From NCBI RefSeq assembly GCF_045037415.1, contig NZ_CP173438.1: a stretch of 64,000 bases of DNA; one strand, written 5' to 3'. Position 1 is the first letter of the stretch; every line of letters starts with the position of its first letter. A program made the translations under genes and the position numbers. Under the pieces are notes generated by a model that worked only from the letters and a program-made list of their open reading frames with translations, did no database searches and was not told where the DNA came from. Below are positions 30,626-44,476 of the stretch, piece by piece. Origin of the DNA: Escherichia coli (lineage in GTDB: Bacteria; Pseudomonadota; Gammaproteobacteria; Enterobacterales; Enterobacteriaceae).

Positions 30626-30901
30626 ATTTTTCCCTAAATAGTCAGTAAGTTGAAACTTATTATTGTGCGTTTGTTGAAAAAACCATCTGACCATAACGCC
30701 AACCGCAGGGGAAAGGAAGGATTATCTGCGGATTTGTCACATAAAAAGAGCATGATCACATTTGGAATACCTGTGCGATAAACCACACATTGCCACGGTT
30801 ATTCTGCTTACACATTCACACAATGGCACTCTTTTGGTTCTCGCAAACATTGTTCAGGGAATATACTGATGATAAATATAAATGCATTCAATGGATGATG
30901 A

Positions 30902-32722
30902 ATGAAAATATCGTGGAATTATATATTTAAGAACAAATGGCGATTTCACATTACAAGCATTTCACTTTTTCTTATCATGCTCGCGGTTTCAATCGCTTTT
31001 TTGCACTTGCGTTTTAATACCTTGTCCGGTACCGATAAAATGCGGCTTGAAATGTATAAGTCCACATTATATTCCACCATCGAGCAATTTTATGTTTTAC
31101 CCTATATGCTCTCAACAGACCATATCATCCGTCAGGCGGTAATTACGCCTGACGATATGACGTCCAGCGAACTCAATCAACGAATTGCACATTTCAATAC
31201 TCAACTCAAAACCGCAGCAATATTTATTCTGGATACCCAAGGTAAGGCCATCGCTTCTAGTAACTGGCAGGACCCCGGCAGCTATGTAGGGCAAAATTAT
31301 AGCTATCGCCCCTATTATAAACACGCCATGTCTGGCTTAAATGGACGCTTTTACGGTATTGGTAGCACTACGAATACACCGGGATTCTTCCTCTCTACAA
31401 GTATAAAAGATAAAGGAAAAATTGTCGGTGTTGTAGTAGTAAAAATAAGTCTTAATGAAATTGAAAAAGCATGGGCCGAAGGTCCTGAAAATATTATCGT
31501 GAATGATGAACATGGGATTATATTTTTAAGTTCAAAATCGCCATGGCGAATGCGAACACTGCAACCGTTACCTGTTCAGGCAAAACAAAAACTACAATCT
31601 ACCCGCCAATATAGTCTCGACAATCTTTTACCGGCGGATTATTATCCCTGTTATACCGTGAGCAATTTTACTTTCCTGAAAGATAAAAAAGAACAACTCT
31701 GTTTATTCCCGCAATATTATACGCAACAAATAGCCATTCCAGAATTTAACTGGAAAATGACAATTATGGTCCCCTTAGATAACCTGTACTGGTCATGGGC
31801 TATTTCGTTAGTCATTACACTAATTATTTACCTGCTGTTTTTGTTATTTATTAAATACTGGAGAATGCGATCTCATGCACAACAATTATTAACACTGGCG
31901 AATGAAACATTAGAAAAACAGGTTAAAGAGCGTACATCTGCCCTGGAATTGATCAATCAAAAATTAATACAGGAGATAAAAGAGCGCAGTCAGGCTGAAC
32001 AAGTATTACAAATTACGCGTAGTGAACTGGCAGAGTCCAGCAAACTGGCGGCGCTTGGACAGATGGCAACCGAAATTGCCCATGAACAAAATCAACCGTT
32101 AGCCGCCATTCACGCACTTACTGATAACGCGCGTACTATGCTAAAAAAAGAGATGTATCCACAGGTTGAACAGAATCTGAAACACATTATTTCCGTGATT
32201 GAGCGGATGACGCAGCTCATTTCCGAACTTAAAGCATTTGCCTCGCGCCATCGCGTACCTAAAGGTTCTGCCGATGTCATCAAAGTGATGTATAGCGCCG
32301 TGGCGTTACTTAATCACAGCATGGAGAAAAATAACATTGAGCGACGAATAAAAGCCCCATCCATGCCGTTATTTGTCAATTGCGATGAACTCGGTCTTGA
32401 ACAGATATTCAGTAATTTAATTAGCAACGCCTTAGATTCTATGGAAGGTAGCTCTTACAAACGACTGGATATCGCCATTCGCCAGGCAAATAACAAAGTT
32501 ATTATTACCATTAAAGACAGCGGTGGCGGTTTTGCACCTGAAGTTGTCGATCGCATATTTGAACCATTTTTTACCACTAAACGTAGAGGAATGGGGTTGG
32601 GACTGGCAATAGTCAGCGAAATTGTCCGAAATTCGAACGGCGCACTCCACGCCAGTAATCATCCTGAAGGCGGCGCAGTAATGACATTAACCTGGCCTGA
32701 ATGGGGAGAAAAACATGAATAA
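30902..32722 (+). CDS. kguS: Sensor histidine kinase, likely KguS of the alpha-ketoglutarate island
   Basis: 606-aa ORF with N-terminal TM, periplasmic domain, second TM, and HisKA/HATPase region (ATEIAHEQNQPLAAI H-box, DSGGGF, GMGLGLA). Confidence 0.7.
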   Translation: MKISWNYIFKNKWRFHITSISLFLIMLAVSIAFLHLRFNTLSGTDKMRLEMYKSTLYSTIEQFYVLPYMLSTDHIIRQAVITPDDMTSSELNQRIAHFNTQLKTAAIFILDTQGKAIASSNWQDPGSYVGQNYSYRPYYKHAMSGLNGRFYGIGSTTNTPGFFLSTSIKDKGKIVGVVVVKISLNEIEKAWAEGPENIIVNDEHGIIFLSSKSPWRMRTLQPLPVQAKQKLQSTRQYSLDNLLPADYYPCYTVSNFTFLKDKKEQLCLFPQYYTQQIAIPEFNWKMTIMVPLDNLYWSWAISLVITLIIYLLFLLFIKYWRMRSHAQQLLTLANETLEKQVKERTSALELINQKLIQEIKERSQAEQVLQITRSELAESSKLAALGQMATEIAHEQNQPLAAIHALTDNARTMLKKEMYPQVEQNLKHIISVIERMTQLISELKAFASRHRVPKGSADVIKVMYSAVALLNHSMEKNNIERRIKAPSMPLFVNCDELGLEQIFSNLISNALDSMEGSSYKRLDIAIRQANNKVIITIKDSGGGFAPEVVDRIFEPFFTTKRRGMGLGLAIVSEIVRNSNGALHASNHPEGGAVMTLTWPEWGEKHE

Positions 32723-34073
32723 TAAATTCAGTGAAATTACTATAGTTTATATTGAGGATAGTGACGATGTACGTTTTGCCTGTGAACAAACGCTCACGCT
32801 GGCTGGTTATCGCGTTATTTCCTGTTGCGATGCAGAACACAGTATTCCCCTTATTCAAAGTCAGGCCAACATTATTATACTGACCGATGTCAGGTTACCT
32901 GGAATATCAGGACTAGAGCTCCTCAGTTACATCAACGAAATGGATAGCAAAATTCCGGTTATTTTAATTACCGGACACGGTGACGTGGAAATGGCGGTGG
33001 ATGCCATGCGTAATGGTGCATTCGATTTCATTGAGAAACCAAGTAGCTCAGATAAATTATTGAGTATTATTGCCAGAGCGGTAGAAAAACGGCGATTGGT
33101 TTTAGAAAATCAGCAATTACTGGCGAATCTGCAACAGGAAAATGGCCCGGTGCTGATTGGTCGTAGTCCGCAGATGCAGCAACTGCGTAAAATGATCCTT
33201 AATGTCGCAGATACCGGTGCCGATGTCCTTATTTATGGTGAAACAGGTTGTGGTAAAGAAGTCGTCGCCAGAATGCTGCATCACTGGAGTACCCGCCGTC
33301 AGGGGCAGTTTGTTGCCTTAAACTGTGCAGGCTTACCAGAAACGTTGTTTGAAAGCGAAATATTTGGTCATGAGGCGGGCGCATTTACCGGTGCGGTTAA
33401 AAAGCGTATTGGAAAAATTGAACATGCAAATGGTGGTACGTTATTTCTCGATGAAATAGAGGGAATGCCATCAGGAATGCAGGTAAAACTGCTACGTGTA
33501 TTGCAGGAAAGAACCATTGAACGATTAGGTGCCAATCAATTAATTCCGGTGAATTGCCGTGTTATTGCAGCGACCAAGGAAGATTTACTGCGTCGCAGCG
33601 AAGAACATCTGTTTCGTCTCGATCTCTATTATCGTCTGAATGTGGTTAGCCTGAATATTCCACCTCTACGCCAGCGACGAGAAGATATCCCTGAACTGTT
33701 TTACTGGTTCGCCAGTCAGGCGGCACAAAAATATAATCGTCCTCTGCCTGATATTTCTCCCATGTTACTGGCCTGGTTGCAGTCACAAAGTTGGCCTGGC
33801 AATGTACGTGAACTTAAACACAATGCAGAGCGTTTTGTTCTCGGTTTACTGACCCACCACCAGCCAGTGCCAATGACTCAGCAAGAAGAGAGTGGTCTTA
33901 CCGCCTGCATTGATGCTTTCGAGAAAAAGTTAATCGAAGATATGCTGCGACAAACGGAAGGCCAGGTCAGTTTGACAGCGCGGCTATTACAGCTGCCGCG
34001 CAAGACTTTATATGACAAACTCAACAAACATCAGATTCAACCGCAAGTTTATCGACCAGAATCATCCAGCTAA
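32715..34073 (+). CDS. kguR: Sigma-54-dependent response regulator (NtrC family), likely KguR
   Basis: Receiver domain, AAA+ sigma-54 activation domain (GETGCGKE Walker A, GAFTGA motif in EAGAFTGAVKK), C-terminal HTH; 8-bp overlap with kinase gene. Confidence 0.8.
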   Translation: MNNKFSEITIVYIEDSDDVRFACEQTLTLAGYRVISCCDAEHSIPLIQSQANIIILTDVRLPGISGLELLSYINEMDSKIPVILITGHGDVEMAVDAMRNGAFDFIEKPSSSDKLLSIIARAVEKRRLVLENQQLLANLQQENGPVLIGRSPQMQQLRKMILNVADTGADVLIYGETGCGKEVVARMLHHWSTRRQGQFVALNCAGLPETLFESEIFGHEAGAFTGAVKKRIGKIEHANGGTLFLDEIEGMPSGMQVKLLRVLQERTIERLGANQLIPVNCRVIAATKEDLLRRSEEHLFRLDLYYRLNVVSLNIPPLRQRREDIPELFYWFASQAAQKYNRPLPDISPMLLAWLQSQSWPGNVRELKHNAERFVLGLLTHHQPVPMTQQEESGLTACIDAFEKKLIEDMLRQTEGQVSLTARLLQLPRKTLYDKLNKHQIQPQVYRPESSS

Positions 34074-44295: not shown

Positions 44296-44330
44296 GTTTT
44301 TCTCCTGATGGTCATAGACAGCTGCATTAC

Positions 44331-44346
44331 TGCACAATCCGTACCA
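44331..44346 (-). promoter_or_regulatory. Candidate sigma-54 (-24/-12) promoter for the 2-oxoglutarate dehydrogenase / succinyl-CoA synthetase operon
   Basis: Minus strand reads TGGTAC-GGATT-GTGCA with GG-N10-GC spacing, ~36 bp upstream of the proposed E1 start. Confidence 0.45.
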
Positions 44347-44476
44347 ACAGTTAAAAACACTAATTTTCAAAAACTTATAGAAAAGAGATGATGTAAAAGT
44401 GGGCGAAAAAAGGGACAAAATAGTAGGGAGTGGCTGGAGTCAGGAACAGGCGGAGAGATCCGCCTGTTGATTAAAA

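Follow-up and report, generated by a model that had tools for sequence, protein, structure and literature searches.

What system is encoded by the nine genes that separate aphA from tyrB on contig NZ_CP173438.1 of Escherichia coli (assembly GCF_045037415.1), and how did these genes come to reside there? In the 64,000-nucleotide stretch of this contig analyzed here (hereinafter, the window), they fill the aphA-tyrB interval, two on the plus strand followed by seven on the minus strand, as seen in the list of open reading frames for 28-47 kb and in the RefSeq annotation of the matching genomes of strains CFT073 and NR301. The comparisons described below leave very little doubt that the window holds an intact copy of the KguS/KguR alpha-ketoglutarate (KG) utilization island c5032-c5041 of uropathogenic E. 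coli (UPEC). This island, which lies between tyrB and aphA in strain CFT073 and whose kinase and regulator were named KguS/KguR by Cai et al. in 2013 (PMC3694859), is already known and well characterized with respect to its regulator, sigma factor, transporter and role in vivo (PMC3694859, PMC5318444, PMC8716947). An earlier interpretation of the same DNA (the sequence-only reading) had given the content, order, strands and place of the nine genes as they are found here, and had rightly considered the island to be known rather than novel, as its publication shows (PMC3694859).

Identity with the CFT073 island

Window positions 29001-46000 align with CFT073 over 17 kb, ungapped, with 98.99% nucleotide identity, which bears out the match to the kgu locus that the sequence-only reading had proposed. 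In gene set, order and orientation, the nine genes are orthologous to c5041, c5040, c5039, c5038, c5037, c5036, c5035, c5034 and c5032, and in RefSeq they are annotated, in this order, as sensor kinase, sigma-54-dependent regulator, Ldh-family oxidoreductase, DASS symporter, sucD, sucC, lpdA, odhB and 2-oxoglutarate dehydrogenase E1. The encoded proteins differ from their CFT073 orthologs in 1-10 residues each (0.2-2.1%; 2 of 606 residues in KguS and 1 of 452 in KguR), the nucleotide substitutions summed over the nine genes amount to 128, and all nine genes are full length, with zero internal stops. The two islands occupy the same site and share identical KguR sites at c5038 and kguS as well as the same sigma-54 promoter of c5038; the differences between them are allelic only, namely 10 amino acids in the E3 protein of the window and one base in the predicted c5032 site within tyrB. 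The genes and their flanks are as follows.

29912-30625, minus strand: aphA, left flank of the island
30902-32722, plus strand: kguS (c5041 ortholog), DctB-like sensor histidine kinase, 606 amino acids, 2 different from CFT073
32715-34073, plus strand: kguR (c5040 ortholog), NtrC-family sigma-54 activator, 452 amino acids, 1 different from CFT073
34062-35135, minus strand: Ldh_2-family oxidoreductase (c5039 ortholog), 357 amino acids; Pfam Ldh_2, E 4.5e-93
35147-36646, minus strand: DASS-family dicarboxylate transporter (c5038 ortholog), 499 amino acids, 1 different from CFT073; TIGR00785, 242.2 bits against a cut-off of 198.6
36858-37730, minus strand: sucD paralog, succinyl-CoA synthetase alpha (c5037); NF004230, 468.7 bits against a cut-off of 336
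37743-38912, minus strand: sucC paralog, succinyl-CoA synthetase beta (c5036); NF001913, 531.8 bits against a cut-off of 370
38934-40352, minus strand: lpd, dihydrolipoyl dehydrogenase E3 (c5035); TIGR01350, 479 bits against a cut-off of 408.8
40364-41518, minus strand: E2, dihydrolipoyllysine succinyltransferase (c5034); NF004309, 552 bits against a cut-off of 449
41551-44295, minus strand: E1, 2-oxoglutarate dehydrogenase (c5032); NF006914, 1212 bits against a cut-off of 764
44477-45670, minus strand: tyrB, right flank of the island
30764-44475, no strand assigned: island-specific DNA, 13,712 bp in place of the 966-bp AT-rich yjbS segment of K-12

In a K-12-type genome, the small gene yjbS alone is found between aphA and tyrB. 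The absence of the nine genes from K-12 and the description of the strain as non-K-12, both put forward by the sequence-only reading, accordingly hold, given that the island replaces the yjbS segment. The span of 30626-44476 assigned to the island in that reading is correct for the whole aphA-to-tyrB interval, but the island-specific DNA is narrower: in a BLAST comparison of the K-12-type locus with the window, homology ends at 30763 and restarts at 44476, and the 138 bp adjoining aphA are common to both. On the tyrB side, the break is at the stop codon (TGA in the window, TAA in K-12). Eight mismatches to K-12 cluster within the final 55 nucleotides of tyrB (44507-44530) and, because of this clustering at the 3' end of the gene, the divergent block probably reaches slightly into tyrB. 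The product of the window tyrB differs from that of CFT073 in 9 amino acids and from that of K-12 in 11.

The G+C content is about 39-45% across kguS and kguR and about 50-55% across the other island genes. No tRNA was found in the window, no direct or inverted repeats were found flanking the island, an NCBIfam search identified no recombinase among the nine island proteins, and an Rfam scan of 30000-45800 produced zero matches. By the classical marks of a mobile genomic island (an integrase or transposase, a tRNA or other att site, and flanking direct repeats), the locus does not qualify as one. The K-12 yjbS segment (positions 2266-3231 of the K-12-type locus) has a G+C content of 32%, and searches of its 966 bp with blastn (word size 7) and tblastx yielded no island relic better than an E-value of about 1, so that deletion of the island from K-12 is without direct proof. 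Given this base composition and the lack of anything in common with the island, the "empty" K-12-type site is itself atypical DNA and not a clean deletion scar.

Proteins encoded in the island

KguS contains the Pfam domains dCache_1 (residues 50-228), HisKA and HATPase_c. Residues 41-292 match the structures of the periplasmic sensor of DctB (2zbb, 3e4o) with an E-value of about 1e-32, the periplasmic dCache sensor is flanked by two hydrophobic (transmembrane) segments, and the phospho-acceptor His394 is present. The similarity of KguS to DctB was already reported in 2013 (PMC3694859). The kguR gene starts 8 nucleotides before the end of kguS. Its product matches NtrC/AtoC-type models below their equivalog cut-offs and retains the receiver Asp58, the GAFTGA motif of the AAA+ domain at residue 222, and the C-terminal helix-turn-helix domain; from these features, KguR is best regarded as a member of the NtrC family and not as an ortholog of a named protein such as NtrC or AtoC.

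The arrangement resembles the DctB/DctD system of rhizobia, in which a kinase with a periplasmic tandem-PDC/dCache sensor and an NtrC-type sigma-54 activator likewise govern a dicarboxylate transporter. In contrast to DctB/DctD, however, KguS has been shown in CFT073 to respond to a C5 dicarboxylate, KG, the transporter of the island is of the DASS type, not of the DctA type, and the KguS/KguR regulon additionally includes a complete dehydrogenase and CoA-ligase pathway. The MifS/MifR system of Pseudomonas aeruginosa presumably represents the same type of arrangement.

The curated NCBIfam cut-offs are passed by E1, E2, E3, SucC, SucD and the DASS transporter. All three components of the 2-oxoglutarate dehydrogenase complex exceed their equivalog cut-offs and contain the expected catalytic motifs: E2 has the lipoyl-lysine motif ETDKV and the catalytic DHRIIDG (50.2% identity to K-12 SucB), and E3 has the CLNVGC redox disulfide and the FAD motif; E1 is 48.6% identical to K-12 SucA and differs from the CFT073 protein in 5 amino acids. 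An ADP-forming succinyl-CoA synthetase is similarly indicated, with both subunits above the cut-offs and the GHAGA phosphohistidine motif retained in SucD (67.2% identity to K-12 SucD; 56.0% for SucC against K-12 SucC). With 49-67% identity to the K-12 paralogs, the island enzymes are distant paralogs of the housekeeping proteins and not products of a recent duplication. They belong to the same families and catalyze the same reactions, from KG to succinyl-CoA to succinate, as the products of K-12 sucABCD and lpd; the difference is that the island operon has its own E3, is controlled by KguR and sigma-54 and is induced anaerobically, whereas sucABCD is anaerobically repressed.

The Ldh_2-family protein is less readily assigned. 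With the best NCBIfam model, NF007504, it reaches 276.8 bits where the cut-off is 336, and it scores lower with the other models, so that the protein falls short of the equivalog cut-offs of the YbiC-type, AllD, DlgD and ComC models, although its membership in the Pfam Ldh_2 superfamily holds. The nearest solved structure is 2g8y, and a literature search on YbiC/HcxB function gave no useful lead to the substrate. The role of c5039 was not established in the CFT073 study (PMC3694859).

Regulatory elements

The predicted and published control elements are as follows.

30772-30789, no strand assigned: KguR autoregulatory inverted repeat upstream of kguS, TGTGCGATAAACCACACA; in a pattern search, the identical reverse complement of the published TGTGTGGTTTATCGCACA
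36702-36687, minus strand: sigma-54 -24/-12 promoter of the c5038-c5039 operon, TGGCATAGCTCCTGCA (consensus scan and conservation)
36763-36782, minus strand: KguR-binding inverted repeat upstream of c5038, TGTGCGGAAAACCGCGCACA, identical to the published site (PMC3694859, PMC8716947)
36806-36812, minus strand: second conserved TGTGTGG element upstream of c5038 (cross-species alignment)
36841-36821, minus strand: intrinsic terminator 3' of the sucD paralog, an 8-bp stem followed by TTTTTAT (terminator scan)
44346-44331, minus strand: sigma-54-like -24/-12 element TGGTACGGATTGTGCA, 2 mismatches to the consensus, 35 nucleotides upstream of the E1 start codon (consensus scan)
44445-44468, minus strand: inverted repeat AACAGGCGGA-TCTC-TCCGCCTGTT, directly after the tyrB stop codon
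44520-44544, minus strand: predicted KguR site for c5032 within the tyrB coding sequence, here TGTGTGTCGCCGGGCTTAACACGCA; CFT073 ends in CGCGCA, with one base different

The repeat upstream of kguS was considered as a potential new finding and rejected, being the autoregulatory site already listed and tested by electrophoretic mobility shift assay (EMSA) in PMC8716947. For the c5038-c5039 operon, the placement of TGGCATAGCTCCTGCA agrees with the transcription start reported at -30 and with the reported requirement of c5038 for RpoN (PMC5318444) and, together with its conservation across species, identifies it as the promoter. When the DNA preceding the transporter gene is aligned between E. 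coli, E. albertii, three Citrobacter species, Klebsiella indica and Vibrio, three elements prove to be conserved: the sigma-54 promoter, the KguR site and, some 25 bp farther from the gene, a second element with the sequence TGTGYGG. The terminator at 36841-36821 separates the two minus-strand operons, in agreement with the published operon structure (PMC3694859).

The control elements of the E1 operon (c5032-c5037) are less well defined. The TGGTACGGATTGTGCA element is conserved in CFT073 and E. albertii, has a counterpart upstream of the Vibrio E1 gene, and is the likely promoter of this operon; no experimental mapping of the c5032-c5037 promoter was found in PMC3694859, PMC5318444 or PMC8716947. 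Matches to the sigma-54 consensus with three mismatches are frequent in coding DNA, with about 40 in the window, and therefore both promoter assignments rest on position and conservation, not on motif count. The KguR site predicted for c5032 in 2013, TGTGTG-N13-CGCGCA (PMC3694859), was subsequently classed as a site within a coding sequence (PMC8716947); it is missing from K-12 tyrB and is not conserved in E. albertii. The inverted repeat at 44445-44468, whose arms, but not its loop, are conserved in E. albertii, might be the terminator of tyrB or, alternatively, a candidate site for upstream activation.

Proposed mechanism and function

The mechanism proposed for the island is the one already published. 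KguS, a membrane-bound histidine kinase whose periplasmic dCache sensor resembles that of DctB, would detect external KG and phosphorylate KguR, an NtrC-type enhancer-binding protein that would bind inverted repeats of the TGTG-N-CACA type, drive the sigma-54 promoters of two operons and also activate its own operon. The first operon would provide a DASS transporter that imports KG anaerobically, along with the Ldh_2 oxidoreductase. The second, encoding another full 2-oxoglutarate dehydrogenase, with an E3 of its own beside E1 and E2, as well as a succinyl-CoA synthetase, would convert KG to succinate under anaerobiosis, yielding NADH and one ATP by substrate-level phosphorylation, and would act while the housekeeping sucABCD operon is repressed by anaerobiosis. 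In CFT073, induction by KG, dependence on KguR and RpoN, binding of KguR in EMSA, a defect in anaerobic growth and a fitness defect in mouse urinary tract infection have been demonstrated (PMC3694859, PMC5318444, PMC8716947), and c5038 has been identified as an anaerobic alpha-KG importer (PMC5318444). Given that the genes and sites are nearly identical to those of CFT073, we infer that the island works in the same way in the strain analyzed here.

No feature of the sequence contradicts this explanation, which nevertheless has several limits. The functional experiments all come from CFT073, none from this strain. KguS, KguR and the Ldh_2 protein are below any equivalog cut-off, and therefore their specificity rests on those experiments. 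E3 is the most changed of the island proteins compared to CFT073 (10 amino acids), and the control of the E1 operon is less well defined than that of c5038, because the predicted KguR site is inside tyrB, changed by one base and unconserved.

Two other explanations of the gene content can be envisaged. Given that the chromosome already encodes these housekeeping functions, the island might be a decaying or silent, non-functional duplicate of sucABCD-lpd. This is highly improbable: none of the nine reading frames or signature motifs is disrupted, conservation extends to the regulatory sites, and the 49-67% identity to the K-12 paralogs excludes a recent duplication. Furthermore, the island proteins are 92-98% identical to those of E. 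albertii despite a silent-site difference of about 0.32, a combination that indicates purifying selection on the island genes. Alternatively, the dehydrogenase could act on another 2-oxoacid, such as 2-oxoadipate, with KG being merely the inducer, a possibility that the limited identity of E1 to SucA (just 48.6%) and the presence of an Ldh_2 enzyme without an assigned substrate might be taken to favor. Against it, the scores of E1 and E2 greatly exceed the equivalog cut-offs specific for 2-oxoglutarate (1212 vs 764 and 552 vs 449 bits, respectively), and deletion of c5032-c5037 in CFT073 impairs anaerobic growth on KG specifically, while growth on glucose, glycerol and C4-dicarboxylates is unaffected (PMC3694859), so that this substrate assignment, too, has hardly any chance of being correct.

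Distribution in E. coli

The island is present in 1,045 of the 5,426 complete E. coli genomes, nearly always as a single, chromosomal copy that in 982 of the 1,045 carriers is at least 99% identical to that of the window. The window copy is 100.0% identical to the island of JJ1887, which we take to be an ST131 strain, and of many human isolates; across 25379-59520, the window is 99.99% identical to strain NR301. Because the carriers also include soil, water, dog and poultry isolates and one probiotic product, the island marks a lineage rather than a pathotype. The suggestion that the strain is likely to be extraintestinal-pathogenic is, then, reasonable in view of the copy shared with JJ1887 and many human isolates, but only in a probabilistic sense, considering the carriers from soil, water, animals and a probiotic.

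Two carriers deserve mention. In E. coli 14EC007 (NZ_CP024131.1, hit H76), the kguS-kguR allele, which is interrupted by IS1, is 99.3% identical to that of E. albertii, compared to about 86% in the other 1,044 carriers; this genome is either a mislabeled E. albertii or an interspecies recombinant. In E. coli AR_0058, the island matches as two pieces spanning about 777 bp beyond the query length.

Related loci in other species and the age of the island

When one genome per bacterial species was scanned with KguS, E. albertii, three Citrobacter species and Klebsiella indica proved to carry the same set of genes next to aphA. In Vibrio sp. Y2-5, the scan identified all nine genes in a rearranged form, with the E1 operon divergent from kguS. 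The encoded proteins are 72-98% identical to those of the window in the enteric species and 53-77% in Vibrio, and in all these loci the transporter gene is preceded by a conserved sigma-54 promoter and a conserved upstream activator site. The enteric loci are alike in the nine genes and the aphA neighbor and, in E. albertii, also in the tyrB neighbor. The E. albertii locus (L015) reads alr-tyrB-E1-E2-E3-sucC-sucD-(Y1 transposase)-DASS-Ldh_2-kguR-kguS-aphA-yjbQ-yjbR-uvrA-ssb, and both island junctions are the same as in E. coli; the junction on the tyrB side is confirmed for E. albertii only, not for Citrobacter. A difference is that, in the E. albertii locus, sucD and the transporter gene are separated by a gene for a Y1 (IS200-like) transposase. 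The spacer between these genes (36647-36857 in the window; equivalents, 9213-9722 in L015 and 7413-8003 in locus L007) seems to tolerate insertions, and about 380 extra bp are found there in K. indica.

At four-fold degenerate sites, the divergence between the window and E. albertii is 640/2023 = 0.316 for the nine island genes and 320/1025 = 0.312 for six flanking core genes. In comparisons with Citrobacter, the values for island and flanks overlap but are near saturation. When the window is compared with CFT073, island and flanks show about the same divergence. For individual genes compared with E. albertii, four-fold divergence is 0.19-0.30 for uvrA, ssb, yjbQ and yjbR, 0.445 for aphA and 0.435 for tyrB, which is unusually variable for a core gene. 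The elevated values for tyrB and aphA suggest that, at each edge of the island, recombination has occurred or constraint is relaxed.

The shared synteny with E. albertii and the equal silent-site divergence of island and flanks make the locus look old and repeatedly lost; the equal divergence fits old vertical inheritance, not recent acquisition by UPEC. We consider it slightly more probable than not that the island has long resided at the aphA-tyrB site, that it dates back at least to the ancestor shared by E. coli and E. albertii, perhaps to that of the Escherichia/Citrobacter/Klebsiella lineage, and that most E. coli lineages lost it via replacement with the yjbS segment. Certain observations call for caution about such an age. 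Among the other Escherichia representatives, one genome per species, the island was not found, only E. albertii being positive, and therefore several independent losses have to be assumed. In addition, kguS and kguR are atypically low in G+C, and K-12 retains no island relic. It is also possible that the island was exchanged in the distant past, with homologous recombination taking place in the conserved flanks.

The published view of the origin, under which the island is a recent, horizontally acquired, UPEC-specific pathogenicity island, appears to us rather doubtful, even if it has tangible points in its favor. Less than a fifth of the complete E. coli genomes (the 1,045 of 5,426 given above) carry the island, kguS and kguR have 40-45% G+C compared to about 52% in their neighbors, and E. 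albertii is the sole other Escherichia carrier among the species representatives. Horizontal transfer of c5038 has also been argued on the basis of a tree that groups few enteric relatives with this gene (PMC5318444). Recent acquisition is, however, difficult to reconcile with the location of the genes, which in E. albertii occupy the same tyrB-aphA site and in three Citrobacter species and K. indica are neighbors of aphA, with four-fold divergence from E. albertii that is practically the same for island and flanks, with the similar divergence of island and flanks between the window and CFT073, and with the finding of no integrase, tRNA or flanking repeat at the island.

Other insertions in the window

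A second, small non-K-12 insertion, at 45749-47331 between tyrB and alr, replaces 173 bp of K-12 and contains two genes.

45752-46756, minus strand: AAA-family ATPase, also present at this place in CFT073
46753-47310, minus strand: PnuC nicotinamide riboside transporter

In the E. albertii locus, tyrB and alr are adjacent. Where dnaB and qorA adjoin in K-12, the window has five genes between them (49953-56940); as annotated in NR301, these encode a LacI-family regulator, an acyl-CoA:acetate/3-ketoacid CoA-transferase, an enoyl-CoA hydratase, an Nramp transporter and an FAD-dependent oxidoreductase, and represent another metabolic islet without mobility genes. Two sites occupied in NR301 are empty in the window: one between yjcB and ssb (at about 25385), where NR301 has an element of about 20 kb with integrases, type I restriction-modification, DprA and a RecQ helicase, and one at the 3' end of dusA (at about 59520), where it has an integrase and a prophage.

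Implications

For annotation, these results place the window in a non-K-12, CFT073/ST131-like lineage that carries a validated urinary-tract fitness locus. The synteny in other enteric species, with the age that it suggests, is the only point that goes beyond the literature. If the island is indeed old, its statistical association with uropathogens would be due more to descent, the island having been retained in B2-like lineages, than to selection for its acquisition in pathogens. The comparative evidence for an ancient island, syntenic in other enteric bacteria, has a bearing on the reading of "pathogen-associated" metabolic islands.

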